Source of the DNA: Planctomycetota bacterium
GTDB lineage: Bacteria; Planctomycetota; Phycisphaerae; WQYP01
DNA length: 64,000 nucleotides
Direction of reading: 5' to 3'
NCBI GenBank assembly: GCA_021785435.1
Contig: JAJYFE010000003.1
Location: 1 to 64,000 of the forward strand
In this document: in pieces, positions 6,723-48,047 of the stretch
Layout of the letters: each line of letters opens with the position of its first letter
Position numbering within the stretch: the first letter of the stretch is position 1
The notes under the pieces: generated by a model
Told to the model about the DNA's origin: nothing
Seen by the model: only the letters and a program-made list of their open reading frames with translations
Databases searched by the model: none
Program-made: the position numbers and the translations under genes

Positions 6723-6733
6723 ACGCCAAGCCT

Positions 6734-10195: not shown

Positions 10196-10197
10196 CG

Positions 10198-29507: not shown

Positions 29508-29659
29508 AGCCGAGGCCGGAGAGCAGGTGAACCGGAGAACGGAGACTGCAGGCGCGGCGAGGTTGCAATGCTTGCAAAGAACCGCCCATTGTTGGGGTGG
29601 ACATTCTCCGGCGTGCCGGTTCTATCATCCACCGGCTCTATCCCGATGGATGTCCGGAT

Positions 29660-29744
29660 GCCCGGGTGGCGGAATGGCAGACGCTCAGGACTTAAAATCC
29701 TGTGACCTGTAAAGGTCGTGCGGGTTCGAGTCCCGCCCCGGGCA
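29660..29744 (+). tRNA. tRNA-Leu (anticodon UAA), long variable arm
   Basis: GCCCGGGTGGCGGAATGGCAGACGCTCAGGACTTAAAATCCTG...GGTTCGAGTCCCGCCCCGGGCA folds as a type-II tRNA with 7-bp acceptor stem and anticodon TAA. Confidence 0.85.
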
Positions 29745-30332
29745 GTCAACAGTCATGCGGCTGTACAGGCTGATGGTTAAGACAGGCGTCGAATGCCGGG
29801 CCAATTCCTGGCATGTCTTGACGCTGGCCCCGGATTGCACCAGCCACGAAACGTAACTCACGCGAAGGCAATGGAAATCCGTATCCGCCGTAGAAACGCC
29901 CGCTGCCTGTAAGTCGGCTCGGAACATGTCCGCCACGTCAAAACGCGGCGGTAGGGCGAATACAGGCTTGCCGGCGGCCTTCTGGTGCAGCCATGGCTTG
30001 AGCTTTTCGGCCAGGGCGACGGGTATCGCCTGCCGATTATCGCGACGCCGCTTGGAGTAGGCGGCCTTCACCGTGATGGTGGCCGGGGTATCGTTCAAGT
30101 CAAAACTTTCCGGCATCAGTGTCCGCAACTCGCCTTGCCGAAAGCCTGTGTTACCCGCCACGCGATAAACCATGGCCCGGTCCGTGCCGCTCATGCCAAA
30201 GGCTTCACCGGGTTTGTCGGTGGCGGCGATCAGGGCGGCAAACTTGGCGTGGCTCAACGCCCGGCGGTGAATCTTGCGATCCGATGCGGCCACCGTGGAA
30301 ACCTTCACGGCAATAAGCGTATCGTCGGCCAA
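29685..30332 (-). pseudogene. int: Tyrosine integrase (P4-like), C-terminal catalytic fragment
   Basis: Catalytic-domain residues (TGFRQGELRTL; HCLRVSYVSWLVQSG; LYSR); 3' end reads into the tRNA (GRDSNPHD antisense-tRNA peptide); separated from its N-terminal half by an insertion. Confidence 0.7.
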
Positions 30333-30358
30333 GTGGCCGTTGCGGTGCGGCCAGCGGC

Positions 30359-30535
30359 TAGAGCGTGTTATAAACTTTGAAAACTAGGTTTTTCCGCATC
30401 CAGGGCGGGTTTTGTGCGTTCGCAGAGCCATCCACCCATTGCCTGCCGGGAGGTTGTAAGCCAAAACCACCGTGTTTCCGGCATTTTGGTGGCTTTGGCG
30501 CCTGAAAGTTCATAACACGCTCTAAACCTCTTTGC
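30359..30535. mobile_element. MITE-like ~177-bp element with 21-bp terminal inverted repeats, inserted in the integrase gene
   Basis: TAGAGCGTGTTATAAACTTT at 30359-30379 and its reverse complement AAAGTTCATAACACGCTCTA at 30515-30535 (1 mismatch); flanking TA on both sides. Confidence 0.5.
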
Positions 30536-30952
30536 CGCTCGAATGTGATGGGCCAGGCTCGCTTTCTTGTGGGCTTTGTCCCGCAGCTTGGCAATGGCGG
30601 CATTCAAAGCGGCTGGTTTCAATTGCGACAGCCGCTCCACTTCGCCAAGCATTACTATCCGCTCCGCCCTCTGCTGGACTTGGAAGGCGTAGGCTTCCTT
30701 GCCGTTGCGGGCCAGAATGTCCGCTTCAAATTCGGCCAGGTGTTCCGCCAGCGGCTTGCGTTCGGCGGCGGCAAATCTGTCCATGGCGGCGTCGATGATG
30801 CCTTCCCGGCGGAGCATGGAATCGGTTTGCAGTTTGTTGGCAATCTGCAACGCCATGCCTTTGTCCGTACCGGCAGACTTCGCTTTCCACAAGCCGTCTG
30901 TACCAAGGTGCGAAGCAATCCAGTTTTTCCCACGTTTGTAGACGCTTGCCAT
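30368..30952 (-). pseudogene. int: Tyrosine integrase N-terminal fragment (P4-type, MASVYKRGKNW...)
   Basis: Typical P4-family integrase N-terminus; last ~56 codons are read from the inserted element; frame differs from the catalytic fragment. Confidence 0.7.
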
Positions 30953-30974
30953 AGATCACCGATGCTTTCTCACT

Positions 30975-31271
30975 TCAGCGGTAAATGTCCTTACGATGGC
31001 CGATTTTCAAAACCAGAACCAGCAGCCGTTGGTCGTGAATTTCATACATAATCCGATACGGGCCGACGCGAACCCGCCATAAGTTATCGTCCCCCTGCAT
31101 CTTCACTACGCCGGGCGGACGCGGATCAGACGCCAGCGCGTCGATGCACCGTTCGAGTCTGGCCGTGACATCATGGGGAAGCCTTTCCAACGCTTTGGCG
31201 GCGGCGGCTTTAAGGACGATGCGATAAGCCACGGCCTCAATGCTTCCCCGTGGTGTCGCCTGCCTGGACAT
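30975..31271 (-). CDS. RelE/ParE-family type II toxin
   Basis: 98 aa; ...WRVRVGPYRIMYEIHDQRLLVLVLKIGHRKDIY, typical RelE/ParE C-terminus. Confidence 0.8.
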   Translation of the reverse strand: MSRQATPRGSIEAVAYRIVLKAAAAKALERLPHDVTARLERCIDALASDPRPPGVVKMQGDDNLWRVRVGPYRIMYEIHDQRLLVLVLKIGHRKDIYR

Positions 31272-31518
31272 GCCGGCGCTTGGCTTTCAATCGCGCTTTG
31301 ACAGTTTCCCAAGGTATCTCGCCTTTTTCCTTGCGGGCCTTGAGCGCGGCCTTCAAGTCGGCCGCATCTTCCAGCGCATCCAATGTCCGTAGATCGTCAA
31401 TGCTCACCAGCGCCGCGGTGGGTTTGCCCTTGCGGGCCAAAGGGATACGCTCTCCACCATAAGCCACACGGCTCAAGTAATCCGACAGGTTATTTCTGAA
31501 CGCCACAATACTATCCAT
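31237..31518 (-). CDS. Phd/YefM-family antitoxin
   Basis: MDSIVAFRNNLSDYLSRVAYGGERIPLARKGKPTAALVSIDDL...; overlaps toxin start; start at internal Met 31518. Confidence 0.75.
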   Translation of the reverse strand: MDSIVAFRNNLSDYLSRVAYGGERIPLARKGKPTAALVSIDDLRTLDALEDAADLKAALKARKEKGEIPWETVKARLKAKRRHVQAGDTTGKH

Positions 31519-31735
31519 ACTGCACACTCCAAGTACGCCGCAATTTATAATGTACATTATGTAAACTATCTTGTCAAGTGTTTTTTCATCGGCTCGCAAG
31601 TCACGCCGCGCTATGGCCGGTTGTCTTCGAAAAACGAGCATTCACACCACCCTTGCGAACGGCTGGCGTCGCCCACCGCTCCAGCGGCAGGTTCGGTAAA
31701 GCCGAAACCATTGAAGCAGAAAGACAATCACCATT

Positions 31736-32296
31736 TCATAGCCCCGCCGTCTGGGCGTTGGCTTCCGGTTTTGCCCAATCCATCGTCGTGCTTCCGGCCC
31801 GTCCTGCTGCCGGTGGAGGTGCGATCACGTTTGGCGGTCTAATCCATCGGTAACGATTCGCCTTGCCGCCTGCCACGACACCCGGCGTACCACGTTGCAC
31901 CAAGGCGATCAATCCCGATGCGGCCAGCCTCTGGAAAGCGCGCAGTGCCTCCATGGGCGTTGCAAAACCGCAGTGCTTGCAGGCGGCACGGGTTGTCAAA
32001 AAGAATTCGCCGGGCGGGTTGTTTCCCAATGCTCGGCAAAGCCGTCCCAAGGCGTCCAGCTTCGGCATATCCGGCAGAATAGGTGGTGACTTCTGGGCGG
32101 AGGCGGTGGCGCGGGCGATGGTGGCAGGAAACTTGCGACATTTCCCACCCCGGCAAAACTCTTGCCAGTTGAACTCCCTGTCTTTCGTCCTGATATACAG
32201 CTCGGCCTGCTCGTACCACAAGTCGAATTCGCCGCGGAGAGCCTCCGGTTCCGCGCCGGGGTTCAATCCCTTGAGAATCCCGACCAGTTCAAACAA
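31736..32296 (-). CDS. Hypothetical protein (island cargo)
   Basis: 186-aa ORF, no recognised motif. Confidence 0.4.
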   Translation of the reverse strand: MFELVGILKGLNPGAEPEALRGEFDLWYEQAELYIRTKDREFNWQEFCRGGKCRKFPATIARATASAQKSPPILPDMPKLDALGRLCRALGNNPPGEFFLTTRAACKHCGFATPMEALRAFQRLAASGLIALVQRGTPGVVAGGKANRYRWIRPPNVIAPPPAAGRAGSTTMDWAKPEANAQTAGL

Positions 32297-32299
32297 GCT

Positions 32300-32908
32300 T
32301 TAGTTTCGTACCCCAGCGCCCATGTTACATATGTCGTAAACAGACTTATGTAACAGCACGGCATTGGTAAGGGGCGGGGGAAATCGGAAACTTGGGTCTT
32401 CGGCAAGCTGAAACCATTCCGGGACGATGGTGGGTATCTGGCTGTCAGGTTCTGGCGTCCTTATCCACCGGTAGCAGACGCCCGATTCGTGTTCACTCGG
32501 CGGCAGAATCACGAACCTTCCGTCGGCTTTGAATTCGCCGCCTTGAAAATCTTTGCCGTGGACAGCTTCAGAAACCCTGCCGAAGAAGTGTTTGCCCCTG
32601 AATGTCTGCGACACCGGCAGTTCGGCGGCGATTTCGGCAAACTCGCTTTCCCACATGGCGCATGCAGGCACAACGTCAAAATCCAGCGCCACCAGCCCGT
32701 TGCTGCGTTGTCCGAGCGCTACACCGATCCCAGCAGTGCCAGGACGCGAGAATAGTTCTTCGGTTTGGCGGCGGCCGAGCGGTTCCCGCGTCCAGTACGT
32801 CCATCGGCACCGCGGTATTTTTCCCCGATCTACCGGAAATATGCGCCAGCCCCAAGATTGATAGAGGGCGGCGGTTTCGAGCAACGTAGTAGTGGCGATA
32901 GTGTTCAT
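32300..32908 (-). CDS. Bifunctional DNA primase/polymerase (Prim-Pol) N-terminal domain protein
   Basis: ALYQSWGWRIFPV...ALDFD..., resembles the Prim-Pol family; start assumed at MNTIATT. Confidence 0.6.
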   Translation of the reverse strand: MNTIATTTLLETAALYQSWGWRIFPVDRGKIPRCRWTYWTREPLGRRQTEELFSRPGTAGIGVALGQRSNGLVALDFDVVPACAMWESEFAEIAAELPVSQTFRGKHFFGRVSEAVHGKDFQGGEFKADGRFVILPPSEHESGVCYRWIRTPEPDSQIPTIVPEWFQLAEDPSFRFPPPLTNAVLLHKSVYDICNMGAGVRN

Positions 32909-32912
32909 GGCC

Positions 32913-33224
32913 TCACCGCGCCGGCAGCCCGGCTTCAAACCGCTCCAATTCTTGCGGCGAAATTCTTACGCTTCTCCCGATTTTCACCGCACGAATGTGG
33001 CGCGATGCACATAGCTTCCGAATCATGCGGGCTGACAATGCCAACCGCTCGGCAGCCGAAGCGTAGGTGAAGTAAGGGCGTATGTCTGTGGTGTTGGCCA
33101 TGCTGGGGCACTCCGTGTCCGCCCCGGCGACCACGGCCACCACGGCCGCGAAGTTCGCCCTTGGGCTATGACACCGAGCATCCATCACGTTGGCAGGCAG
33201 AAATTCCGGCGGAATTTCTGGCAA
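32913..33224 (-). CDS. AlpA/excisionase-like HTH DNA-binding protein
   Basis: YFTYASAAERLALSARMIRKLCASRHIRAVKIGRSVRISPQELERF, MerR-type/Xis-like HTH; likely start at internal Met ~33101. Confidence 0.55.
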   Translation of the reverse strand: MPEIPPEFLPANVMDARCHSPRANFAAVVAVVAGADTECPSMANTTDIRPYFTYASAAERLALSARMIRKLCASRHIRAVKIGRSVRISPQELERFEAGLPAR

Positions 33225-33621
33225 CTATTGACTTCTGCATAAATAATACAATAGTCAGGGCAAAAAAGGGGGTAGTTGCGTCTGGTGGATGCACCAGCGC
33301 AGCTCGCCTTATCGAGTCGCCTCCTTCGGCGACTTGGGCTGGGAGGCCCGCAGGCTCCGGAGCGTCCTACGGAGCGCCACGGCCAGGGCGTCGAGATGGG
33401 CGAGGCGTCTTTTCCGGCGGGAAGCCCCACGGGGCGGATAATGCATTCCCCGCCGCGAACGATACCCCCCCCCAGTATACCCCGCGTGGGGAAAGGGTGG
33501 GGAAAACCACTGGCAAAAACGGGATACTACTAGCAGATATGGACATATCTAGTTGATCCAATAAGAATGAAGAAAACCCAATAGGCATAAGGCAAAGCCG
33601 CATGGATATTGGGTTTCGACC

Positions 33622-33705
33622 GGGTGGCGGAATGGCAGACGCTCAGGACTTAAAATCCTGTGACCTGTAAAGGTCGTGCGGGTTCGAGTCCCGCCCCGGG
33701 CAGTC
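33622..33705 (+). repeat. Second copy of tRNA-Leu positions 3 to 3' end (attR); not a functional tRNA
   Basis: Identical to 29662-29744 but 5' end is GA... instead of GC..., breaking acceptor-stem pair 2. Confidence 0.8.
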
Positions 33706-34357
33706 CATAAGTGATCCCATGCTGACCGGTCATCGGATGACCGGCGCCAAGTATGAAACCCGCCAGCCGCGCAGGAAGGCCAGGCTGCTCGGCATGGCGC
33801 CAGGCCCAGGTCCGGCAGGTCCGCGCCAGTCGCTCCAGTTCGGAATCGCCCAAAATGGCCGGTAAGCCATCCGTCTCTGGGACGGCGCTGGATATCTCCG
33901 ACCACCCATCGCAAAGTCGCCACGCCACGCACAATAAAGCCACGGGCGATTTCTGGTTAAAATAGGAGCGGGGCGGTGGCGGCTGGTGTGGCGGGTGGTA
34001 GAGGGTGGCGCTGAAGATGGCTGGGGGTCCGCGAGGAGATAACGGTTACACTCTGGAAAAGAAATTGGCGCCGGCGTGGCAGAAATGCTAAGTAGGAACG
34101 CAGAATGAATGCGGCGATTGAAGCGGGGCGGATCTTCGACCTGCTACCGATTCATTCTGTGTTCCCACTCAATCCCGACCGCTATCGGAATGCTAAGCCG
34201 CAAACGGCTAATAAGCGATAGCCATCGGGATGGATTAACAGCGGCTGGGCCAGGCTTCGAAAACGGCGGCATTGGATCGCGGCGCGCGCGACGCGCGGAG
34301 CGGCGCCAGGGCGATAGGGTCAGGGCCGACGATTCTCGAACCGTCCGATAAGTCGAA

Positions 34358-37300
34358 ATGATCGGGAGACAGGAGCCGATAACAGTGAACCAACCGCCAC
34401 CCATCCGGGAGGGCCAAACCATCACCGGTTCGCTGTTCAGTGAGCCGATGCGGGTGGTGACGGTTCGCACCGAGGGGCCTGACACCTGGATTGCCGGCCT
34501 GGTTGGCCTGCGGAGCCAACGATTTCACGAGGTCACACTGACCGCCGATCAAATCGCCAAGCTCACCATTCTCGATGCCGCGCTCAACTACGCCGGCGAC
34601 GGCCACTTGCTCCGCCTGGGCCTGCAGGCCTATGCGCTGGGCATCGCGTATGAATTCGATCCCTACTTTGGCCTGTCCATTTCCCGCGTGGATCCGCTGC
34701 CGCACCAGTTGGAGGCCGTGTACGACTATCTGCTGAAGCTCGCCCGCGTGCGTTTTCTGCTGGCCGATGACGCCGGGGCCGGCAAGACGATTATGGCCGG
34801 GCTGCTTATCCGCGAACTGGAACTGCGCGGCCTCGCCGAACGCATCCTGGTTGTTGCTCCGGCCAACCTGGCGTTCCAATGGCAACGGGAACTGCGGGAT
34901 AAATTCGAGGCGAAATTCGAGGTCATGCGGGGAACCGATATCCGGGAGCAGTTTGGCTTCAACCAATGGCAGGAAAAAAAGCGGATTATCACCTCACTGG
35001 ATCTGGCCAAACGCGACGACATATTGCCCGGCCTCGGGCAGGCGCACTGGGATCTGGTCATTGTGGATGAAGCCCACCGCATGTCGGCGTCTGATGAAAC
35101 CCACAAAAGCCTGCGCTATAAACTGGGCGAGCTACTCCGCGATACCACCGATCACCTGCTGTTGCTCACCGCCACGCCGCACAAAGGTAACCCTGAAAAC
35201 TTCAGCCTGTTTCTGCAACTGCTCGACCTCGATGCCTATGCGGACGTGAAATCCATCCGCCAGGCGATGGAGCGCCGCCGGGCGCCGTTCTATCTGCGCC
35301 GCACCAAGGAGGCCATGGTCTATTTCCCGCAGCGCCAAGCCGACGGCACCTGGGTGGCCCGGAAGATTTTCACCAAACGCATTCCGCACACCGTGGATTT
35401 TCAGATGGATGGGCCGGAGTTCAAGCTCTATCAGGAGGTCACGCGCTTTGTGAAACGGCACAGCGCCCGGGCGGCGGCGCAGGGGGATGACCCGCGCGCC
35501 CGCGCTGTGGGTTTTCTGATGTCGCTTTATCAGCGCCGGTTGGCCTCCAGCGCCTACGCCATGCGCCACAGCCTGGAAAACCGCGCCCACCGATTGGAAG
35601 ACGGCCTTAAGCATGCCCAGGAGTTGGCCCGCGGAGCGCCGCCGGATTTGCCGTCATCCGAAGAAATCGAAGAAATGGAGGACACCGAACGGGAGCGGCT
35701 GGAAAAAACGTTGGAAGCCATCACGCTGGCGGGTAATGCCGAACAGGTCCGCCTGGAAGTTCAGGAGCTGCGTGAACTTGCCGCCCAGGCCCGCACGGTG
35801 GAGGACGGCGGCGCTGAGGCGAAGCTGTCGCGCCTGAAAGAGCTGCTCCAGAAAGAGGGCTTTTTCGACCGGCCTGACCAGCGCCTGCTCGTGTTTACCG
35901 AGTTTAAGGACACGCTGGATTATCTGGTCGCCAGGTTCAAGGGCTGGGGCTTCAGGGTGGGGTGTATCCATGGCGGCATGAAGCCCGGCTCGCGTGATGA
36001 ACCCGGCACACGGCTCTTCGCCGAGCAGCAATTCCGCGATGGGGCGATTCAGATTTTGGTCGCCACGGAGGCCGCCGGCGAGGGGATCAACCTGCAGGTC
36101 TGCAACATCCTGTTTAACTACGATATCCCCTGGAATCCTAACCGCTTGGAACAACGGATGGGCCGGATTCACCGCTATGGCCAGCACAAGACGTGTCTCA
36201 TATTCAACTTCGTCGCGAGTAACACGATCGAGGGCCATGTTCTGCGGCGTCTGCTGGCCAAGTTGCAGGAAATACGGGACGCGCTCGATGATGACGCCGT
36301 CTTCAACGTGGTCGGCGAAGTGTTGCCGGCCGCGCACGTCGAAAAAGTGCTGCGCGATTATTACGCCGGTAAACTCGGCGATGGCGACCTGGAGGAGCGG
36401 CTGCTGAAAAATGTTGAAGAAGGCCAGTTCCGCGCCATCTGCCAAAACGCGCTGGAAGGCCTGGCCTCTAAAAAGCTCAATCTGCGGATGCTCGTGGAGC
36501 GCCGGGCCTTGGCCCAGGAACGCCGCATGGTGCCCGAAACCATCGCCCGTTTTATCCGCGAAGCAGCGCCCTATGCCCGGCTGGAGCTGAAAACGCTTTC
36601 CACCGTGCCGCATGCGTTCGAGCCGGGCCGCACGCCGCCGGCCTTACGCAGCTACGAACGCGCCCCGGATTGGCGGCTGCCGGCGCTTTCGATCAAGTAC
36701 CCGCGCTGCTCCACGGACCGCGAAGCGGCCGAGAAAAATTCCCTGGAATGGATCACGCCCGGCCATCCACTTTTCGAGGCTATACGGCGGCATACGTCGG
36801 ACCTGGCCGCGGACGCTCTTGGCAAGGGGGCCTGTTTTTACTCGCTGGAGCATGATACCCCGGTACGCCTTGACTTTTATCGCGCCCGCGTGGTGGACGG
36901 GCTTGGGCAGGTCATCCATGAACGGCTCTTCGCCGTGGAAGTGGCCGACGGCAAAGCCCCCGCCATCCGCGAGCCGGGGATCTTGGGCAATTTTACGCCA
37001 GCCCCGGCGCCGCACGATCTGCCTGCGGCAGCCCAGGAGCCGGAGCCAACGGCCTGGCTCCAGAAAACCGCGCTCCAGCCATTTCTGGAGGAAACCCGCC
37101 AAGAGCGGCTGGGGGAAATCGAACGCGTCGCCGAACACGTGAGGCTATCCCTGACCGAGCTCATGCAGAGAGCCGATGACGAAATCGGCAAAGCGGCTAA
37201 TGAGGTGGAGAAAAAGCTGCCCGGCGCGGAGGGGCGGCTTTCCCAGGCGGAAAACCGTCATGCCGAATTGCTGGCCCGCCGGGACCGCCGCCGCCGCGAA

Positions 37301-37798
37301 CTGGAGCGACAACGTTCGCTATCTCTGCAGGCCGTGGAGCGTCTGACCAGTGTTCTGGTTCTGCCGCATCCCGATCGGGATGCGCCGGAGGTGCGCAACC
37401 TCCGGCAAAATCTCCAGACCGAGGCCATCGCCATGCAGGCGGTGCTGGAGCACGAAAAGGCGCAAGGCCGGCAGGTTTATGACGTCCACGAGAAAAATCT
37501 CGGCTACGATATCACCAGTCTGGACTTAGATTCCGGCGAACTGCGGCTGATCGAAGTCAAAGGCCTCGGCGCGGAAAGCGGCTCGGTGCTGCTGACGCCC
37601 AATGAATTACGCGTCGCCCAGGACCGGCCCGAATGCTTCTGGCTCTACGTGGTCACGAACTGCAACGCCCAGCCGACCATTTTCCCACCGATCAAAAATC
37701 CCGCCCGCCTGCCCTGGGGCGAAGTGGTTAAGGTCCAGCACTATGCGATAACGCTTAAAGATATGCGAAGCAGCCTCTCCACGGAGGGAGCAAAATGA
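34358..37798 (+). CDS. SNF2-family helicase with C-terminal DUF3883 domain (defense helicase; DISARM DrmD-like)
   Basis: Walker A DDAGAGKT, DEAH box (VIVDEAHRM), motif VI QRMGRIHRYGQ; C-terminus GYDITSLDLDSGELRLIEVKG...FWLYVV matches DUF3883. Confidence 0.85.
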   Translation: MIGRQEPITVNQPPPIREGQTITGSLFSEPMRVVTVRTEGPDTWIAGLVGLRSQRFHEVTLTADQIAKLTILDAALNYAGDGHLLRLGLQAYALGIAYEFDPYFGLSISRVDPLPHQLEAVYDYLLKLARVRFLLADDAGAGKTIMAGLLIRELELRGLAERILVVAPANLAFQWQRELRDKFEAKFEVMRGTDIREQFGFNQWQEKKRIITSLDLAKRDDILPGLGQAHWDLVIVDEAHRMSASDETHKSLRYKLGELLRDTTDHLLLLTATPHKGNPENFSLFLQLLDLDAYADVKSIRQAMERRRAPFYLRRTKEAMVYFPQRQADGTWVARKIFTKRIPHTVDFQMDGPEFKLYQEVTRFVKRHSARAAAQGDDPRARAVGFLMSLYQRRLASSAYAMRHSLENRAHRLEDGLKHAQELARGAPPDLPSSEEIEEMEDTERERLEKTLEAITLAGNAEQVRLEVQELRELAAQARTVEDGGAEAKLSRLKELLQKEGFFDRPDQRLLVFTEFKDTLDYLVARFKGWGFRVGCIHGGMKPGSRDEPGTRLFAEQQFRDGAIQILVATEAAGEGINLQVCNILFNYDIPWNPNRLEQRMGRIHRYGQHKTCLIFNFVASNTIEGHVLRRLLAKLQEIRDALDDDAVFNVVGEVLPAAHVEKVLRDYYAGKLGDGDLEERLLKNVEEGQFRAICQNALEGLASKKLNLRMLVERRALAQERRMVPETIARFIREAAPYARLELKTLSTVPHAFEPGRTPPALRSYERAPDWRLPALSIKYPRCSTDREAAEKNSLEWITPGHPLFEAIRRHTSDLAADALGKGACFYSLEHDTPVRLDFYRARVVDGLGQVIHERLFAVEVADGKAPAIREPGILGNFTPAPAPHDLPAAAQEPEPTAWLQKTALQPFLEETRQERLGEIERVAEHVRLSLTELMQRADDEIGKAANEVEKKLPGAEGRLSQAENRHAELLARRDRRRRELERQRSLSLQAVERLTSVLVLPHPDRDAPEVRNLRQNLQTEAIAMQAVLEHEKAQGRQVYDVHEKNLGYDITSLDLDSGELRLIEVKGLGAESGSVLLTPNELRVAQDRPECFWLYVVTNCNAQPTIFPPIKNPARLPWGEVVKVQHYAITLKDMRSSLSTEGAK

Positions 37799-38844
37799 AA
37801 TCATTCGAGCACGGCTATCTATTGGATACGGCCATTTCCCACTCGCTACTGAGGTCGATGCGGGTATTGGGGGAATTTCGGGGCCGCGAGAATCTCTACA
37901 CTGAACAATTTCCAGAGGTTCTGGAAACGCTGCGGCAAGTCGCCCTCGTTCAAAGCGCTGAATCTTCCAATCGCATTGAGGGCATTACGGTCCTTCCCGA
38001 GCGCCTCGCCCCTCTGGTAACCAAGAAAACGCAGCCGCGTGACCGGTCGGAGCAGGAAGTGGCCGGTTATCGCGACGTACTGGCCGATATCCACTCCAAT
38101 CACGCGCGCTTGAAGTTATCCACGGACCTCATACTTCGCTGGCACCAGATGATCTACCACTACACCGGCGAGATAGGCGGCGCGTGGAAAACCGGCGACA
38201 ATGCCATCTTGGAAACGCGGCCCGAGGGTCGGCAGGTGGTGCGCTTCCGGCCTGTATCCGCCGTGGGCACGCCGCAGTTTATGCAGCGACTCGTGGAGCT
38301 TTTTCAGCAATCCCTGGCGGAAGCGAAAACCGACCCGCTCTTGCTGGTTGCCAGCGCCATCTTTGATTTTGAATGCATCCATCCATTCAAGGATGGCAAC
38401 GGGCGTATCGGCCGGTTGCTCACGCTTCTGCTGCTCTACCAGTGCGGCTACGAGGCCGGGCGCTATATCAGCCTTGAGCGCATCGTCGAGGAAAGCAAAG
38501 AGACTTACTACGAAGCTCTATATAAAAGCTCGCAGGGCTGGCACAACGGCGAGCATGACCTTCGCCCCTGGTGGGAATATTTCCTGGGCACGCTGATCGC
38601 CGCCTACAACGAGTTTGAATCCCGCGTGGGCACCCTAAGTGGCGCGCGCGGTGCCAAGCGGGAAATGGTGCGCCATGCCGTGGGTCGCCTGCCACAGCGA
38701 TTTACCGTCGGCGATTTGAAGCGAGTTTGCGGCGGTGTAAGTTACCCCACGTTGCAGCGGGCCCTGGCCGACATGCGACGCGAAAAGCTGCTGCGGTGCC
38801 TGGGTCGCGGTCCAGACGCCCAGTGGGAACGGATTGAGGGCTGA
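37795..38844 (+). CDS. Fic-family AMPylase (class II, internal inhibitory SxxxEG motif)
   Basis: HPFKDGNGRIGR Fic motif; upstream SNRIEG inhibitory-helix motif; C-terminal wHTH; ATGA overlap with helicase stop. Confidence 0.85.
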   Translation: MKSFEHGYLLDTAISHSLLRSMRVLGEFRGRENLYTEQFPEVLETLRQVALVQSAESSNRIEGITVLPERLAPLVTKKTQPRDRSEQEVAGYRDVLADIHSNHARLKLSTDLILRWHQMIYHYTGEIGGAWKTGDNAILETRPEGRQVVRFRPVSAVGTPQFMQRLVELFQQSLAEAKTDPLLLVASAIFDFECIHPFKDGNGRIGRLLTLLLLYQCGYEAGRYISLERIVEESKETYYEALYKSSQGWHNGEHDLRPWWEYFLGTLIAAYNEFESRVGTLSGARGAKREMVRHAVGRLPQRFTVGDLKRVCGGVSYPTLQRALADMRREKLLRCLGRGPDAQWERIEG

Positions 38845-38845
38845 T

Positions 38846-39436
38846 ATGATAATCTTATCACGAAGTGGACTGGTGATAAGAATGGATGGAAAAAGATCAC
38901 CAATGACGCTACTATCCCCCAGCCGCAAGATTGTCATCATCGCCGGGCCAAATGGGGCGGGGAAGACAACGTTCGCGGAAGAATTTCTACCGCTGGAGGC
39001 CGGCTGTCCCGATTTTATTAACGCCGACTTGATTGCCCGCGGCCTTTCGCCATTTGCGCCGGAGAGAGCGGCATTCGAGGCTGGACGGATCATGCTGGCA
39101 CTGATGGCGCGCAAGACCGCCGCAGGCGAAAGCTTCGCGTTTGAGACGACGCTCAGCGGTCGGAATTATGCCCACCGCATCGCGCAATGGCGTAAATCCG
39201 GCTACCATGTGAAACTGATCTTCCTGAGTGTGCCCTCGGTCGATCTGGCGGCAGCGAGGGTGCGAGCTCGCGTTGCGCAGGGCGGTCATAATGTCCCCGA
39301 AGATGTGATCCGGCGGCGGTTTAAATCCGGTCTCAAGAATTTCCATGCCACCTATCGTTCACTGGTGGATAGTTGGATTCTTTACGATAATTCCGTAAGG
39401 CCGCCGCGCGTCCTTGAATCAGGAGGAAACCCGTGA
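38846..39436 (+). CDS. Zeta-toxin-like P-loop kinase (AAA_33/zeta family)
   Basis: IIAGPNGAGKTT P-loop, ~195 aa, fold pattern of zeta/PezT-type kinases; overlaps fic stop. Confidence 0.6.
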   Translation: MIILSRSGLVIRMDGKRSPMTLLSPSRKIVIIAGPNGAGKTTFAEEFLPLEAGCPDFINADLIARGLSPFAPERAAFEAGRIMLALMARKTAAGESFAFETTLSGRNYAHRIAQWRKSGYHVKLIFLSVPSVDLAAARVRARVAQGGHNVPEDVIRRRFKSGLKNFHATYRSLVDSWILYDNSVRPPRVLESGGNP

Positions 39437-39645
39437 CCACACGAATGGATACGCAAGACCCCGACATCCTGGGATCGTTGCCGGCGCTGCGAAGGGCCGC
39501 GCACCGCGCTCGCCGCCTGGCCATCCGGACCGGTACGCCGTGCTACATCATGCGCCGAGGGAAAATAGTCAACATTGCCATAAAGCGCCGTGGCGGTGGC
39601 GCTGCGCCGCTACGGTCGCAAAGGCAAACTAAAAGCACCACCTGA
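39433..39645 (+). CDS. Small ORF (70 aa) translationally coupled to the zeta-like gene; possible cognate partner
   Basis: ATG overlaps zeta stop (ATGA); Arg-rich; no recognised family. Confidence 0.3.
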   Translation: MTTRMDTQDPDILGSLPALRRAAHRARRLAIRTGTPCYIMRRGKIVNIAIKRRGGGAAPLRSQRQTKSTT

Positions 39646-39712
39646 CGAAAAGGGGCCACAAAGCTCTGGAAGGGCAAAGGTTTGTGCTGGGCAGGCGAGG
39701 CGGGGAAGGCCG

Positions 39713-41329
39713 ATGAAAGTAGAAATCCCTCCAGACATAGAGGCGCTGATTTCCCGCAGCTATCCAGCGATTCTCGCGACCAAAATTCCGAAAGGCGAGA
39801 ATTTTGACGGTGATGCCGAGGAGCTGCAAACACGCGGTACAGCAATGGTCCGATGGTGTTACGGGATCGGGCTTGGGGGCCAGCAGCTGCCAGCCGGTGC
39901 ACTTTGCTTCCGGTTTACTGCATGCTCGAACCAAGACGGACAGGTCCAGCGGTTCAACGATTACTTCGCTGGCTGCGAACGCCGGAACAATTCACATGAG
40001 TGCGGAATCCCGATCGCGCACATTATCCTGCACATCCCGGGGCCCGATGGCAGCGAGGGTTGGGTCGGCGACTGCGACGGACTGCCGACGTTTAGAAAAT
40101 ATGACCAGTTCGGCTGGGTGCTGGAGGATTCCCTCCAATGGCTGCGCTGGTCGAGAGGCGGCATCGACGATAAGCAAAACGTCCAATCGCTCTGTACCTC
40201 GTGGGACCCGAATATCCACAAGCTCGCCGATTATCTGGGGAAAAACTTTGATCTATCCGGCAATAGCTTTGGGAAAGTGAAGATCGGTATCGCCAATCTG
40301 ACCAATGACTTGGCATCGAAACTTCTGTTCATCCCCGCTAATTCCGCCGGAGCCCATAAGCCCGTCCCCACGCAGGGCGACACCGAGGTCTTGAAGGAAT
40401 TTTACCGTCTTGATGCGGAGTTTTTACCATCCACTCTGAAGCTTCCCGATTGTGAAATCGCAAGCAGCCTGTTCGCCGCGTTGAGCTTCGCCTCCGGCCT
40501 ACGCCTCGGTTTTGCGGCTACCGTGGTTGTTCAAGGCGGCTGCCCGATCTTTCGTGAACTGCGGCCATGCCGAGGCGGCGTGACGGAGGCTCTGTGCGCC
40601 CCGACTGGCGAGGACGGGAATGCGGTAAAAAAGATCGCGTGGCTTTTTCTTCAGAGGCTGGCCGCTGACTTATCCCAGCTCTCACGGAACGATCCGCATT
40701 TCATGTGCACGCATCCGCTCGTCGGCGCTATCCAGAGAATTAACGAGGCGCTTTCCCGGCGCGGCGTGGAACATGGCGATGATCTCTACCTCACCCTCGA
40801 GCGGGCCTGCCTTTTGATCTCGGTGGCAATTGAGGCGGTCAGCAGGTGTTACGAGCCGAACGAAACTGGGGTGACTTGGCGGCCAACAAGAGAAAAGGGG
40901 GATGCTCGGGTCGAGAGGTGGATCGGCTCCAAGGCGTACGGATTGTGGGCCAGGTACCGCCACGCGCTCGCGCACCGGCTCAAGCTCATCGAGAACGATG
41001 CACCGAGCGCCAGTCGCCCTGGGGCGCGCGGCCAGGGCGCTGCCGCGCTCTCCGATGTCGTCCGCGCGTTTTTGGAGCGCGGCTCTGAGATTAACGGCCG
41101 GCTGCGCGACCTGTGGACCTATGAGCGGTTCCTGATGACGGCCTTTAACCATCTGGTACTGCGCGTCATCGGCTACGACGGCAAGGCAACTGATTGGATG
41201 GACAAGCCGGTGTCATTATACCAGATCAACGGTGGCAATGCACCGGCGCCCGAACTCAATAGTCTTAACAGAACTTTCTCGTCAGCGGACCAGCCCCGCG
41301 ACAGCACAGAAGCGGAGGGGCAACCTTGA
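39713..41329 (+). CDS. Hypothetical 538-aa protein, no recognisable domain, immediately upstream of and overlapping the MTase
   Basis: GGGGAAGG RBS then ATG at 39713; stop TGA overlaps TTG start of DUF1156 gene. Confidence 0.5.
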   Translation: MKVEIPPDIEALISRSYPAILATKIPKGENFDGDAEELQTRGTAMVRWCYGIGLGGQQLPAGALCFRFTACSNQDGQVQRFNDYFAGCERRNNSHECGIPIAHIILHIPGPDGSEGWVGDCDGLPTFRKYDQFGWVLEDSLQWLRWSRGGIDDKQNVQSLCTSWDPNIHKLADYLGKNFDLSGNSFGKVKIGIANLTNDLASKLLFIPANSAGAHKPVPTQGDTEVLKEFYRLDAEFLPSTLKLPDCEIASSLFAALSFASGLRLGFAATVVVQGGCPIFRELRPCRGGVTEALCAPTGEDGNAVKKIAWLFLQRLAADLSQLSRNDPHFMCTHPLVGAIQRINEALSRRGVEHGDDLYLTLERACLLISVAIEAVSRCYEPNETGVTWRPTREKGDARVERWIGSKAYGLWARYRHALAHRLKLIENDAPSASRPGARGQGAAALSDVVRAFLERGSEINGRLRDLWTYERFLMTAFNHLVLRVIGYDGKATDWMDKPVSLYQINGGNAPAPELNSLNRTFSSADQPRDSTEAEGQP

Positions 41330-44300
41330 TCCCCCAATCATGCAGACGTCTCGCCGAAGTGGATTTTCCGATTGCCGCGGTGTCGCGGCATTCGGTGCGG
41401 GAAAAGTCCATCCGGCACGGGCATCCATCCACGCTGCATTTATGGTGGGCGCGGCGGCCGCTGGCGGCGTGCCGAGCCGTGCTGATGGCACTGCTTTTGC
41501 CGGATCCGTGTGATACGCAATGCCCGCAAACGTTCAAAGCCGCGGCACGGCAAATCTTATTGGCGTTTCCGGAGCGGCCCTCGCGCTGGGACCAGGATAT
41601 CCAAAGCGACGAACGCCTGCGCCATGTTCTGCTGCATGAATTCATCGCCGATTTCGCCAACTGGGATCATGCCGCTAATCCGGCGTATCTGAAGACGGCA
41701 CGTGACCTGGTCAAGGCCGCCCATCCGGAAGAAACGCCGCTGGTGGTTGACCCCTTCGCCGGCGGCGGCTCGATTCCACTGGAAGCGTTGCGCATCGGCT
41801 GCGATGCCTTCGCCAGTGATTTGAATCCCGTGGCGTGCCTGATCCTGAAAGTGATGCTGGAGGATATTCCGCGGGAAACCCGCCGCAGAGGCGCGGAGAA
41901 CGCCGAATCATTGGCGGATGAACTCCGCCGAGTGGGGAAGCAGATAAAAGAGGAGGTGGAAAAGGAAGTCGGCGATTTGTACCCCAAAGATCCCGACGGC
42001 GCCACACCGATTGCGTATCTCTGGGCGCGGACGGTTAAATGCGAAGCGCCCAACTGCGGCGCGGAAATACCGCTGGTGCGGTCGTTCTGGCTGTGCAACA
42101 AACCGAACCGCAAACGGGCGCTGCGGTACACGGTGGTTCGTTGTGGCACGGGCTTCCAGCCCGTGAGGGAGGGAAACGGCCATGGGCACGATGCCCATGC
42201 CACCGTTGAGTTCGGAAACGGCCATGGGCAGGATGCCCATGCCACCGTTGAGTTCGAGATTTTCGAGCCGAAATCGGAAAAAGACGTTCCCGCCGGCACC
42301 GTGACGCGGGCCAAGGCGACCTGTCTATGCTGCGGGGCGGTTTTGCCGCCGCAGCGCGTGCGCGCGCAATTGGCCGCCCAGCGCGGCGGCGCGGATGTGA
42401 TATTTGCTTCTGACGCGGGCGATTGTGGCACGGGCTTCCAGCCCGTGATGGATGGAAATGACCATGGGCAGAACGCCCATGCCACCACCATCCAGAAACG
42501 CCGCGGCGCCTACCTGCCGCACTGGACACGCGAGGGGGCGACCTACAGCGTAACCTTTCGGCTCGCCGACAGCCTGCCGGCCAAGGTGCTCGCGGCGTGG
42601 GTCGGGGAGCGTGAGGATATCGTCAAAAGGGCAGCGACCATGGGCCGGCCGCTCACCGACGACGAAATGCGGCGCCTGGACGAGTTGCATTCGCAGCGTA
42701 TCGAAAAGTACCTTGACTCCGGCGCCGGCGAGTGCCAACTGAGGGACCCGCGGATCGCGAATATCGTTCGTGATTCGCTTCTGCATTTTGACGGCGACAG
42801 GTATGACCTGGCCGTATGGTGTGTCATGCCAAACCACGTACACGTGGTAGTTCGGCCCCGCCCCGGCCACGAACTGTCTGATATCCTCCACTCCTGGAAA
42901 AGTTTCACGGCGACAAAAGTCAACCGGCTGCTCGGCCGCACCGGTGCTTTCTGGCAGCCGGAATGTTACGACCACCTGATCCGCGACTGGGATGAACTCG
43001 CGCACGCTGTCGAGTACGTAATGGACAACCCGGGCAAGGCTGGCCTGCGGGATTGGCCCTGGGTCGGCCGCGGCACGGGCTTCCAGCCCGTGATGAACGG
43101 AAATGACCATGGGCAGGATGCCCATGCCACGACGCATGTGCCGCAACGCGTTGCTGGCGCGCGGATGTTGGCCGTGGTGACGCTCAAGCCCGGCCAGCCG
43201 GGCCGGCATTATCGCCTGCCAACCCCACCTGATTATCAGGCCGTCCGGAAGGCGCAGGATCGGCTCAAGGCCATTCTCGACGAATGGGAGCGGGGCGGGA
43301 AGAAGGGGCTTTGCCCCGTGCCGGATGAGCCGACGCCCGCCGGCGGTGGCTCCGGTGCCGGCCGCGCCTTCAGCGTCCAAAAATACGGCATGCTCCAGTG
43401 GGGCGACCTTTTCACGGCGCGGCAGAAGGTGACGCTGGTGCCCCTGGCGGCCGGCGTTGGCGCCGCAGCTCGCGAAAATCCAGCCTTGTCGAAGCTGTTA
43501 GCGTGCGCGCTGGGCATATTTGCGCGATCATGCAATGGTAACGCACGCATGCACCCGAACAGCTCCGTTGCGCCAGCCTTCGGAATGCAGACGCTTCCCA
43601 TCACCTGGACTTTCCCTGAGACAGTCATATCCGGCGGACGATCAGAGCACTTTGATGGAGCCCTCCGGCTTGTTGGGGACGCGCTCGACGGCCCCGGTAT
43701 CCCGGCGCGCAGCGGCGGGCAAGTTGAGCAGGCTGACGCGTCGGAAGTTCCCCTCCCCAGCGGCTCATCCAGCGCGTGGTTCACGGACCCGCCATACTAC
43801 GACGCCATCCCCTATTCCGATCTTTCGGACTTCTTCCTGGCGTGGCTCAAGCGCTGCCTTCCGGGCAACGGCGGCCTGCGCGACCCGTTCGACCCCGCCA
43901 ACAGGTTATCACCGAAATTACGCGAGGCCGTCCAGGACGAAACCAAAGTGGACAGCGGCCGACCAAAGGACCGTGCATGGTTCGAGGAGAAAATGGCGGC
44001 GGCTTTCGCCGAGGGCCGCCGTATTCTCCGTGACGACGGGGTCGGCTGCGTGGTATTTGCGCACAAGACCACCGAAGGCTGGGAAGCCCTGCTCTCCGGT
44101 ATGACCCGCGGCGGCTGGACGGTCACCGGTTCCTGGCCCATCGCCACGGAAATGAGCTCGCGCCTGCGCGCCCGCGACTCCGCCGCCCTTGCCACCAGCG
44201 TGCACCTTATCTGCCGCCCGCGGCCGGATGACGCGCCGGTGGGCGATTGGGGCGAGGTTCTGCGCGAATTGCCCAAACGCGTTGGCGACTGGATGGAACG

Positions 44301-45192
44301 GCTGCAAGGCGAAGGCATTCGCGGGGCGGATTTGGTGTTTGCCTGCATCGGACCGGCGCTGGAAATTTTCAGCCGCTACCGCAAGGTTGAAACCGCCGAT
44401 GGTCGGGAAGTGAAATTGGCCGAATACCTGGAAAAAGTCTGGGAAGTGGTTGGCCGTACGGCGTTGGAAAACGTCTTAGGCTCGGCGGAGGCGAAAGTGC
44501 GTAACGGCGCCGCGGGGGCATTGGAAGAAGATGCCCGGCTGACGGCCCTGTTTCTGTGGGCACTGCAAAGCACGGATGTTAAAGCCCCAGCCGATCGGTC
44601 CGATCCGTCCGGTTCGTCTGATGACGCCGAGGCCGACGAAAACGACGATGAGGACGCCTCCGCGCCTCGGCGTTCCAGCGGCTTTTCGCTCGTTTTTGAC
44701 GTCGTCCGCCGGTTCGCCCAGCCATTGGGGGTAGACCTTTCCAAATGGGAAGGGCGGATCATCCAGACCAGCAAAGGCGTGGTGCGGCTTCTGCCGGTTG
44801 GCGAACGGGCCAAGCAGCTCTTTGGCGAAGAAGGCGCCGCGGTGATGGCCAGCCGGCTGGAAAGCTGGGCCGATCCACAGCAAACGCTGTTTCCAAAAAA
44901 TGAGGCCGACTCACCGCGGAGGCGCGGAGGACGCGGAGCTGAAAAAAGCATTCGGGAGGAGGAAGCTTTGCGGATTCGTGGTGAAATCCAGGCCACCACG
45001 CTGGACCGCGTTCACGCCGCCATGCTGCTGCAGGCCGGCGGCCAGACCAACGGCCTGCGCGCCCTGATTAAGGCCGAACAGCAACGCGGCCCGGATTTCC
45101 TGCGGCTGGCCAATGCCCTGTCGGCGCTTTATCCTTCTGACAGCGAAGAAAAGCGATTATTGGATGCCATGCTGTTGGCCGTGCCGAGGTAA
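41326..45192 (+). CDS. DUF1156-family N6-adenine DNA methyltransferase (DrmMI/PglXI-like) carrying in-frame REP and RAYT insertions
   Basis: N-terminus ...VREKSIRHGHPSTLHLWWARRPLAACRAV is the DUF1156 signature; MTase motif I VVDPFAGGGS and motif IV TDPPYY; 1288 aa versus ~1000 expected. Confidence 0.8.
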   Translation: MIPQSCRRLAEVDFPIAAVSRHSVREKSIRHGHPSTLHLWWARRPLAACRAVLMALLLPDPCDTQCPQTFKAAARQILLAFPERPSRWDQDIQSDERLRHVLLHEFIADFANWDHAANPAYLKTARDLVKAAHPEETPLVVDPFAGGGSIPLEALRIGCDAFASDLNPVACLILKVMLEDIPRETRRRGAENAESLADELRRVGKQIKEEVEKEVGDLYPKDPDGATPIAYLWARTVKCEAPNCGAEIPLVRSFWLCNKPNRKRALRYTVVRCGTGFQPVREGNGHGHDAHATVEFGNGHGQDAHATVEFEIFEPKSEKDVPAGTVTRAKATCLCCGAVLPPQRVRAQLAAQRGGADVIFASDAGDCGTGFQPVMDGNDHGQNAHATTIQKRRGAYLPHWTREGATYSVTFRLADSLPAKVLAAWVGEREDIVKRAATMGRPLTDDEMRRLDELHSQRIEKYLDSGAGECQLRDPRIANIVRDSLLHFDGDRYDLAVWCVMPNHVHVVVRPRPGHELSDILHSWKSFTATKVNRLLGRTGAFWQPECYDHLIRDWDELAHAVEYVMDNPGKAGLRDWPWVGRGTGFQPVMNGNDHGQDAHATTHVPQRVAGARMLAVVTLKPGQPGRHYRLPTPPDYQAVRKAQDRLKAILDEWERGGKKGLCPVPDEPTPAGGGSGAGRAFSVQKYGMLQWGDLFTARQKVTLVPLAAGVGAAARENPALSKLLACALGIFARSCNGNARMHPNSSVAPAFGMQTLPITWTFPETVISGGRSEHFDGALRLVGDALDGPGIPARSGGQVEQADASEVPLPSGSSSAWFTDPPYYDAIPYSDLSDFFLAWLKRCLPGNGGLRDPFDPANRLSPKLREAVQDETKVDSGRPKDRAWFEEKMAAAFAEGRRILRDDGVGCVVFAHKTTEGWEALLSGMTRGGWTVTGSWPIATEMSSRLRARDSAALATSVHLICRPRPDDAPVGDWGEVLRELPKRVGDWMERLQGEGIRGADLVFACIGPALEIFSRYRKVETADGREVKLAEYLEKVWEVVGRTALENVLGSAEAKVRNGAAGALEEDARLTALFLWALQSTDVKAPADRSDPSGSSDDAEADENDDEDASAPRRSSGFSLVFDVVRRFAQPLGVDLSKWEGRIIQTSKGVVRLLPVGERAKQLFGEEGAAVMASRLESWADPQQTLFPKNEADSPRRRGGRGAEKSIREEEALRIRGEIQATTLDRVHAAMLLQAGGQTNGLRALIKAEQQRGPDFLRLANALSALYPSDSEEKRLLDAMLLAVPR
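42143..42256 (+). repeat. REP-like composite hairpin cluster inside the MTase gene, in-frame (35 codons)
   Basis: Hairpin A GGCACGGGCTTCCAGCCCGTG plus duplicated hairpin B GGCCATGGGCA(C/G)GATGCCCATGCC followed by accgttgagttc twice. Confidence 0.6.
42425..43140 (+). mobile_element. REPtron: REP-associated tyrosine transposase (RAYT / IS200-like Y1 TnpA) flanked by same-orientation REP hairpin units, inserted in-frame in the MTase gene
   Basis: HUH motif VMPNHVHVVV and ...FWQPECYDHLIRDWDELAHAVEYVMDNPGKAGL (catalytic Tyr); REP units 42425-42484 and 43082-43140; possible ATG at 42448; no stop before the MTase resumes. Confidence 0.65.
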
Positions 45193-45200
45193 AGGACCTA

Positions 45201-46276
45201 TGTTGCGATTCGAACACATCAACATTCGTGGGTTCAAGTCCATTGAGCGATTGGAGGATTTCGCGCTCGGGCAGCTCAACGTCCTCATTGGCGCCAACGG
45301 TGCGGGTAAAAGCAACTTTGTGGAGTTCTTCCGGCTCCTCGGGGCGATCCGCCAAGGGCGGCTGCGAGCGTACATGGAGCGAAATGCCCCGGCGGACGGC
45401 TATTTCTACAAGGGCATAAAGCAAACCCGGCGCCTTGAGGCCGCGCTGGATTTCGGCATGGGCAACGGATACAGCTTCTGCCTTGAGCCGACCGCGGACG
45501 GAGGCGTGCTCATTGGGGATGCGACAGACTACCGTGGGCTAGGCGGTCAAAGTCCCGAGGTCGGCCATGCGTACCCAGTGAACGACCGGGAATCGCAGAG
45601 CGCTTCGTTCTGGATGGCGCCTGGAGTGCCTGATTGGCAGGTTTATCACTTCCACGACACCAGCGCAACCGCCGGCATGCGCCGCGAAGCCGGCGTCGAT
45701 CAGGCGGAAGCCCTGGCTCCGAACGGCGATAACCTGGCGGCGTTCCTCTTGGCCCTGCGTGCGCACCACGGTGAAAGCTATCAGCTCCTACGCCAGACGG
45801 TGCAGCGAGTGATGCCGCATTTCGATGACTTTGACCTTCGGAAGCGCGATGGGAAAAACGAGGAACTGGTCCGGCTGACCTGGCGTCAGAAAGGCTCGGA
45901 CTATATCTTCCAACCGGGCCACCTTTCGGACGGCACCATTCGCTTTATCTGTCTGGCCACCGCGCTGCTGCAACCCAACCCACCCGCGACCGCCGTTTTT
46001 GACGAGCCGGAACTGGGGCTGCACCCGGAAGCGCTGGTTATTCTGGCCGGCCTGTTTCGGTCGGCGTCAGCTCGGATGCAGATCATCGTGGCCACGCAGT
46101 CGCCGGTTTTGCTGAATGAATTCGAGCTGGCGGATGTGATCACCGTCGACAACGTCCAGGGCGCGACGCAGTTTAACCGGCTCGATAAAGAAGCCCTGCG
46201 CCAGTGGCTGGAGGACTACACCCTCGGCGACCTGTGGCAAAAACGAACGCTGCGTGGAGGCGTGAACCATGCTTGA
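45201..46276 (+). CDS. AAA/ABC-type ATPase (AAA_21-like), AbiLi-like
   Basis: Walker A GANGAGKSN, Walker B AVFDEPELGLHP; 358 aa; 8 bp after MTase stop. Confidence 0.8.
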
Positions 46277-46955: not shown

Positions 46956-47121
46956 GGTTGCGGAGTAGCGGCAGGCGAAAACTCAATTGCCTTGGCCGAC
47001 CACGGTGGTAGGGCCGCCGGACCGCGGTCAATCGCCACCTCGGCGGCAAGAGAACGGCGCCCTCGGGGGCGAACGTGCCCCCGACTGGCCAAGGCGGTCC
47101 TGGCGCTTTATCCTGACGGTT

Positions 47122-48035: not shown

Positions 48036-48047
48036 ATGGAGTTGATC

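Follow-up and report, generated by a model that had tools for sequence, protein, structure and literature searches.

The 64,000-nt stretch studied here, hereafter the window, comprises positions 1 to 64,000 of contig JAJYFE010000003.1 from a Planctomycetota bacterium of the Phycisphaerae (assembly GCA_021785435.1), and it carries a putative integrative element of about 4 kb lying between two copies of a tRNA-Leu(UAA) sequence. All the genes between these copies are on the minus strand. There are six of them, namely xis, rep, phd, parE and int, the last in two pieces. The features of the element, from left to right, are the following.

29660..29744, plus strand: intact tRNA-Leu(UAA) gene, predicted to be regenerated at attL (ARAGORN, Rfam, fold)
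29662..29747, plus strand: putative attL copy of an 86-nt identity block (100% identity repeat, sequence reading)
29685..30358, minus strand: integrase C-terminal catalytic fragment (PF00589, 45 bits; listed open reading frame [ORF] 29685-30332)
30359..30524, no strand: miniature inverted-repeat insertion splitting int (inverted repeat, 95% complementary)
30525..30952, minus strand: integrase N-terminal fragment (the listed ORF, 30368-30952, extends into the insertion)
30975..31271, minus strand: ParE/RelE-superfamily toxin (PF05016 at 4.3e-13, full profile coverage, 50.1 bits, cut-off 23)
31237..31518, minus strand: Phd/YefM antitoxin (PF02604 at 40.5 bits, cut-off 29.8; TIGR01552 at 33.5, cut-off 20.8)
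31736..32299, minus strand: C-terminal half of rep, helical bundle and winged helix (homology, AlphaFold2 model; ORF186, listed as 31736-32296)
32300..32302, minus strand: in-frame TAA cutting rep, inside a conserved G-Q-R-N-x-x-[IVL]-F motif
32303..32908, minus strand: Prim-Pol domain, N-terminal part of rep (ATG at 32908; PF09250 at 1.4e-18)
32913..33101, minus strand: excisionase or AlpA-like helix-turn-helix (HTH_17) protein of 62 aa (PF12728; TIGR01764 "excise" at 41.8 bits, cut-off 28.8)
33102..33619, no strand: non-coding right end with repeats, the probable site of an attP arm, a promoter and an origin
33620..33705, plus strand: putative attR copy of the 86-nt block, with a displaced tRNA copy at 33618-33702 (repeat, Rfam, fold)

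Repeat finding in the window uncovered a direct repeat of 86 nt that is 100% identical between 29662-29747 and 33620-33705, and a 22-mer taken from it occurs exactly twice in the window, with 0 occurrences expected. Of its 86 nt, 83 belong to tRNA-Leu(UAA), from position 3 up to and including the discriminator, and the other 3 are the bases that follow, GTC. An earlier, sequence-only reading of this locus had placed an 84-bp repeat from tRNA position 3 to the 3' end; the repeat and its coordinates were recovered, but the inclusion of GTC brings its length to 86 nt. ARAGORN called two tRNA-Leu(UAA) genes in the window (29659-29745 and 33618-33702), and both copies scored above the gathering score of 29 with Rfam RF00005 (59.7 bits for the left tRNA, 51.2 bits for the right copy); nothing else in the element was matched by Rfam. 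As read from the sequence, all 7 bp of the acceptor stem of the left tRNA (29660-29744) are perfectly paired (GCCCGGG/CCCGGGC), and its discriminator is A. The right copy starts with GA and not GC, which leaves an A2:G71 mismatch, the A-G mismatch at acceptor pair 2 that had already been pointed out. A cloverleaf was predicted for both, at -41.7 kcal/mol with a 7-bp stem for the left tRNA and at -34.9 kcal/mol with 5 acceptor pairs for the right copy; the earlier statement that only the left copy is foldable is therefore an overstatement, although the acceptor stem of the right copy is frayed.

The borders of the identity block are offset from those of the tRNA. Because identity begins at tRNA position 3 and passes the 3' end by 3 nt, the repeat is not a gene unit. 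The intact tRNA and the displaced fragment of the same tRNA are both on the plus strand, the configuration taken as a criterion by Islander. The proposal that the repeat copies are the attL and attR of a tRNA-targeting integrative element holds at the level of sequence, given the offset borders, an int frame that reads into the repeat and relatives with the same layout at tRNA repeats. A 9-bp perfect inverted repeat (AGCCGCATG / CATGCGGCT) was also observed flanking the 86-nt block on its element side (29747-29762 and 33596-33611); in the circular form it would bracket the core, and its arms may be protein-binding sites.

The integrase gene adjoins the intact tRNA. It had been treated as one gene, which overlooked that it is split by a miniature insertion; the PF00589 match falls on the second (C-terminal) piece only. 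The insertion between the two pieces is a 166-bp segment made of a 162-bp body with TA/TA flanks, and its 20-nt inverted ends read TAGAGCGTGTTAT(A/G)AACTTT. Removal of 164 bp, with one TA kept, gives a single int ORF of 367 aa that matches PF00589 at 46 bits. This rebuilt integrase aligned without a gap at the junction to intact homologs (HHIRAAKRF/SRWPHRNGH, the slash marking the junction, against HHLRAxKMFSRWLxRNG), and the catalytic R, K, HxxR, H and Y are all present in the alignment. The terminal 20-mer of the insertion occurs unchanged in at least 120 stretches of JGI metagenomes, of which 80 loci were inspected. Among these was an 861-bp insertion sequence (IS) encoding a 268-aa DUF4096+DDE_Tnp_1 transposase with the same 20-nt termini, as well as a second 164-bp copy with these termini (locus L071). 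The insertion thus has the features of an IS5-family miniature element: it shares its 20-nt termini with an IS, it is flanked by a two-base TA duplication and it has no ORF of its own. It differs in its interior from the other copies found, with which it has just ~22-25 terminal bases in common, the interiors being unrelated. The parent IS presumably belongs to the IS427-like group of the IS5 family in ISfinder. The insertion termini, the TA and the restored ORF indicate that int was inactivated by an IS5-type miniature inverted-repeat element with TA duplication. A 922-bp contig in ENA (P0062) encodes a 95%-identical integrase N-terminal fragment that includes the insertion-encoded RACYEL end, while its first ~80 residues are unrelated to the window integrase; this contig may represent a strain variant or a second copy that was rearranged.

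The integrase frame closes within the tRNA/att block, where its last 20 codons and its TGA stop run antisense to the tRNA, such that the integrase tail CPGRDSNPHDLYRSQDFKS is translated tRNA and the stop falls in the anticodon-stem region of the repeat. The myxophage Mx8, which targets a tRNA gene, has its attP within the 3' end of int, and its integration alters the integrase C-terminus. The window likewise has its att site inside the 3' end of int at a tRNA; unlike in Mx8, the integrase would be the same in the integrated and free states since the stop codon is inside the identity block. The rebuilt integrase has 274 homologs, the best 120 of which were used in the homolog analyses that follow. 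Their median length is 484 aa, compared with 367 aa for the rebuilt protein, with 113 of 118 reaching 400 aa or more. In these homologs, the catalytic tyrosine is followed by ~100 residues, including conserved ALAxLP and ATGT motifs, before the tRNA-encoded tail begins; in the window integrase, two codons only separate the two. Loss of the int-proximal arm probably accounts for this short tail. Tails that resemble translated tRNA end about half of the 120 listed homologs, as counted with a rough regex, so that an integrase reading into its target looks like a habit of the family. The assignment as a P4-type integrase could not be sustained: PF00589 was the only match, the N-terminal arm-binding DUF4102 domain (PF13356) that would denote a P4 integrase was not found, the NCBIfam matches are Xer-like and far below cut-off (Xer model 44.6 for a cut-off of 279, integron model 16.7 for 435), and tblastn against 50,697 phage records gave no match at E<=1e-5. 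A tyrosine integrase that is neither Xer nor integron type is therefore what lies between the tRNA copies, as in the Islander definition, with its gene disrupted.

The replication gene is also interrupted. The Prim-Pol ORF (212 aa) and ORF186 (186 aa) are in the same frame with one TAA between them. ORF186 by itself gave no family match, but in an exhaustive HMMER search it matched residues ~230-400 of proteins of 370-465 aa, most of which bear an N-terminal Prim-Pol domain, and the alignment of the read-through product with the full-length homologs is contiguous over the stop. The shared frame, the single TAA and the full-length homologs led us to conclude that the ancestral rep was one ~390-aa Prim-Pol/winged-helix initiator directly after xis. 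The Prim-Pol domain assigned by the earlier reading was thus found as expected with PF09250; the in-frame TAA had been missed. The DxD and H residues are conserved in the alignment, and a profile of the rep family matched the prim-pol structures of ORF904 from the Sulfolobus plasmid pRN1 (PDB 1rni, 3m1m) at an E value of 6e-10. In the AlphaFold2 model of ORF186 (pLDDT 85.8), a winged helix follows a helical bundle; the fold matches of the model are weak and are to DNA-binding winged helices, the best being the Rep-DNA plasmid complex 5kbj (E 0.034), and this half of rep is predicted from the model to bind DNA. The likeness to ORF904 is limited to the N-terminal domain, as the window protein has no helicase domain and differs by its helical bundle, winged helix and premature stop. 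A truncated helicase-type protein was considered and rejected. ORF186 has no similarity to the helicase parts of the rep proteins of two related loci (L007 and L010), so the window rep never had a helicase of that type and represents a distinct ~400-aa Prim-Pol and winged-helix architecture. No close homolog of the 212-aa ORF other than itself was retrieved by a word-indexed search, and no match to rep was found by tblastn among 72,556 plasmids.

The remaining genes appear undamaged. The proposed AlpA/Xis-like HTH protein was borne out by PF12728 and TIGR01764. Both models of the RelE/Phd module were above threshold as well, and the toxin matched PHROG 1213 (RelE-like toxin) at 2.6e-19. The antitoxin gene comes first and overlaps the toxin gene by 35 nt, a promoter scan placed a promoter-like site ahead of it (31577-31549), and it was called as a 93-aa gene in locus L001; the two genes are thus a predicted type II toxin-antitoxin pair of the ParE/RelE - Phd/YefM kind. 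In the right end, a palindrome (33198-33220), two occurrences of GTGGGGAAA (33486 and 33497) and a 20-nt imperfect hairpin adjoining the core (33574-33616) were noted, and this region probably holds an attP arm, a promoter and the origin.

Homologous elements were then compared. The closest full-length integrase homologs among the matches listed are 48-65% identical and come from metagenome-assembled genomes (MAGs) of Phycisphaerae/Planctomycetota. The loci of homologous integrases show an HTH_17 gene, then a Prim-Pol/AAA_25 or DUF3987 rep, small ORFs (often HTH_3), int and a tRNA, and the integrases are found at tRNA genes with 50-102-nt direct repeats; where the window has two tRNA calls, relatives have a single tRNA and a partial fragment. 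HTH_17 genes encoding 62-69 aa occupy the same position in L007, L009, L010 and L148. L009 is a 7.5-kb element (3931-11508) that also bears a ParE toxin and is bounded by a 50-nt repeat equal to tRNA-Leu(UAA) positions -2 to 48. What L009 carries is thus the 5' portion of the tRNA, and the restored gene is found downstream of the element. Once integrated, L009 places the 3' end of its integrase gene in front of the intact tRNA, where the native upstream region used to be. L010, at a tRNA-Cys, has an 80-102-nt repeat running from position 27 to 32 nt beyond the 3' end. Positions 27-48, the anticodon stem-loop, are common to the repeats of the window, L009 and L010, and the crossover is most likely located there on this comparison. 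Integrases that target tRNAs usually cross over at one of two sublocations, of which the anticodon is one (PMC4383910).

The closest intact rep homolog, P0123 (398 aa), is encoded at locus L148 (1230-7524, ERZ27237177) in a ~6.2-kb HTH_17 - rep - MT-A70 methylase - int element at a tRNA-Val(GAC) with an 87-nt direct repeat. The L148 integrase is unrelated to that of the window and yet overlaps its own tRNA antisense; an unrelated int beside a related rep suggests that these small elements exchange rep and int modules. At L144 (3161-4529, GCA_027428855.1), an integrase with 54% identity (P0005) shows the antisense overlap with tRNA-Leu(UAA). It is encoded directly after a terminase large subunit gene and an HTH_3 gene in a MAG from the same study, and the locus has the look of a phage-like element that uses the same att site. 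At L007/L008 (1-11524), int runs in sense orientation across the whole tRNA-Leu and adjoins a dndB-E-like cluster. Within 10 kb no distal att repeat was seen there, and a larger element may hence carry the Dnd genes as cargo.

The element of the window recurs, at 99.5-100% DNA identity, in contigs from several assemblies and from three MAGs. All the contigs reaching far enough have int in two pieces and a Prim-Pol ORF called at 212 aa, the latter recurring in independent assemblies, and the element appears to be fixed in all sampled genomes of the population. Empty sites were searched for in several ways. A scan of genome contigs for the flanking glycosyltransferase recovered one close contig, which ends inside the gene before the tRNA, and seven relatives of ~55% identity with no tRNA nearby. 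Exact-protein look-ups with the glycosyltransferase, the HmaA helicase and the APS kinase returned occupied sites only, nothing, or a 1.2-kb contig, and the left-junction 26-mer had zero matches in JGI metagenomes.

Taken together, these data favor, with a probability of about 0.8, a reading of the element as a defective member of a Planctomycetota family of very small (~4-7.5 kb) xis - rep - (cargo) - int integrative replicons. In the proposed mechanism, based on what is known of the protein families, the tyrosine integrase would have recombined a circular attP, carrying tRNA positions 3-85 and 3 nt, with the chromosomal tRNA-Leu(UAA). The element would have landed downstream of the regenerated tRNA (attL), and a 5'-clipped copy of the tRNA would have been pushed to the far end (attR). 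Excision would be directed by the HTH_17 excisionase, replication of the resulting circle would fall to the ~390-aa Prim-Pol/winged-helix protein, and the ParE/Phd pair would penalize loss. From the split int, the missing tail and the TAA in rep, we infer that the element can neither move nor replicate alone. The toxin-antitoxin pair, the excisionase and both att sites still look intact, and the toxin-antitoxin pair probably stabilizes the element.

A number of points weigh against this reading. As neither an empty site nor an excised circle was found, integration was not observed and is deduced from structure and relatives. The short integrase tail could be natural variation and not a deletion. 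The two halves of rep could still be functional as polypeptides of their own, as some homologs of the C-terminal half are stand-alone proteins of 150-200 aa and the Prim-Pol catalytic residues are intact. The repeats of the non-coding right end include no convincing iteron or arm-site set, the crossover position derives from a comparison of three elements, of which one is at another tRNA, and the statement that the element is fixed rests on few independent genomes because all copies come from one population.

One alternative is that the element is still mobile, in trans only, with a related integrase elsewhere in the genome excising and re-integrating it in a satellite-like dependency; one candidate donor would be a phage-like element targeting the same tRNA-Leu(UAA). 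The 100% identity of the 86-nt att blocks and the intact xis fit this model, and P0005, with its shared antisense overlap and its terminase neighbor, would be the kind of integrase required. P0005, however, is known from another MAG of the same study. Junctions of an attP or of an empty site were looked for and not found, the broken rep would leave an excised circle unable to replicate, and a scan of 2.9 million viral contigs with the integrase alignment gave only one distant match (28%). We consider mobility in trans improbable. Slightly less probable again is a phage satellite (P4-like, PICI, cfPICI or PLE) or an integrative mobilizable element, as the gene set had been described. An integrase, an AlpA/Xis-like HTH protein and a primase form a core common to satellites, and the PHROG matches are indeed to integrase, excisionase and DNA primase families. 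With all six genes assigned, however, no gene for capsid size, packaging, terminase small subunit, capsid or head-tail adaptor, interference or relaxase (nor any sid, psu or delta gene) was found among them by Pfam, NCBIfam and PHROGs, which led us to abandon this description. The integrase is without a match among the phage records mentioned above, rep matches phage primases weakly (27-32% identity over the Prim-Pol domain) and has no plasmid counterpart, and 4 kb is, to our knowledge, well below known satellite sizes.

A tandem duplication of tRNA-Leu around unrelated genes, in which the copies would not be att sites at all, could be proposed since ARAGORN called both copies as tRNA-Leu and both passed the Rfam gathering score. 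Functional scores for both copies, together with conserved flanks in relatives, had been named beforehand as evidence for such an array. The offset borders of the identity block and the presence of int, xis and rep between the copies oppose it, as do the int frame ending inside the repeat, the defective acceptor stem of the right copy and the single tRNA with partial fragment seen in relatives. We regard this last alternative as very improbable indeed.

The defective integrative replicon that we favor can be compared with known systems. In Islander (Hudson, Lau and Williams 2015, PMC4383910), 3760 of 3919 islands have 3' fragments and 159 of 3919 have 5' fragments, and an anticodon-centered attP class includes 2083 islands. 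Like those islands, the window has a regenerated tRNA with a fragment in the same orientation and a PF00589 integrase inside, beside the intact tRNA; its displaced piece is a 3' fragment, the majority class, its attP is probably anticodon-centered, and L009 falls in the rare 5'-fragment class. The window element differs in its size of 4 kb, in an identity covering nearly the whole tRNA and in an integrase ORF that ends in the tRNA. The work on the tycheposons of Prochlorococcus (bioRxiv 10.1101/2020.12.28.424599) describes a picture like that of the window, of islands that abut tRNAs and have transient elements and degraded remnants at their edge. By the description in that preprint, tycheposons share with the window element the tyrosine recombinase, excisionase and primase/polymerase set as well as full and partial tRNA flanks, and tycheposons and cryptic integrase/excisionase elements also share the fragmented-integrase remnants and the position at the edge of a larger tRNA-abutting island. 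The window element differs in its Planctomycetota host, its length (4 kb versus 10-20 kb) and its toxin-antitoxin pair as sole cargo.

Beyond the right end of the element lies a defense cluster, with the following components on the plus strand.

34358..50972, plus strand: Hma defense cluster, outside the element (PADLOC, Pfam)
34358-37798, plus strand: HmaA (PADLOC 2e-173)
37795-38844, plus strand: SoFic-like protein (PADLOC 3e-40)
38834-39436, plus strand: zeta-like kinase, embedded in the Hma cluster
41326-45192, plus strand: HmaB (PADLOC 4e-96)
45113-46955, plus strand: HEC-01 A/B (PADLOC HEC-01A 9e-123, HEC-01B 1e-54)
48036-50972, plus strand: HmaC (PADLOC 2e-91)

The HmaA helicase, HmaB methylase and HmaC ATPase in one cluster identify an Hma system. 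Defenses nested inside Hma are a published pattern (bioRxiv 10.1101/2024.01.29.577857), with which the embedded SoFic-like, zeta-like and HEC-01 A/B genes agree. The island starts 650 bp past attR, at 34358, and stops before an APS kinase gene (51214-51951). The earlier placement of a defense island right after attR was thus correct, but the reuse of the tRNA as a hotspot that was read from it remains unproven, as no empty site was found and no third att remnant bounding the island was detected in the window (22-mer with 3 mismatches; blastn with word size 7). HmaB is 1288 aa long, ~320 aa more than the PADLOC HmaB profiles (967-973), and its profile match falls in two separate stretches; residues 493-546 match Pfam Y1_Tnp, an IS200-like transposase (26.5 bits, cut-off 23), and there may be an in-frame domain insertion in this methylase. 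A 579-aa ORF between the zeta-like kinase and HmaB (39590-41329) has no Pfam or PADLOC match and is a candidate embedded defense gene. Three small features, judged by eye from translations, were observed in the 1.1-kb gap between HEC-01B and HmaC (46960-48035): a frameshifted nucleotidyltransferase-like sequence (…FGSYARGD…), a HEPN-like fragment and a 145-aa GxxExxY-type ORF (47598-48035).

A more ambitious reading joins several proposals, and we hold it to be doubtful as a whole. The window element would be a stranded representative of a family, as yet undescribed, of minimal integrative replicons spread across Planctomycetota, in which the integrase frame habitually ends inside the tRNA target. 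Integrases of ~55% identity would use the tRNA-Leu(UAA) anticodon stem-loop in two mirror-image ways, either carrying the 3' part and landing downstream, or carrying the 5' part and landing upstream, with the upstream region of the tRNA replaced. Elements of the family would adjoin or carry defense systems (Hma here, Dnd in L007/L008), and the broken copy would be kept by its toxin-antitoxin pair and intact att sites, possibly mobilizable in trans.

Taken alone, the locus is of little weight, being a textbook tRNA-targeting integrative element caught decaying. It does hold a lesson for annotation, since two integrase "genes" are one and two replication-protein "genes" are one, and it adds one more case of a defense island against a tRNA integration site. 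We know of very few mobile elements described in Planctomycetota. The window provides an entry point to xis-rep-int elements of 4-7.5 kb in this phylum, with integrase and rep proteins that lack close counterparts in reference collections of phages and plasmids, and the mirror-image use of tRNA-Leu(UAA) could help map the crossover.

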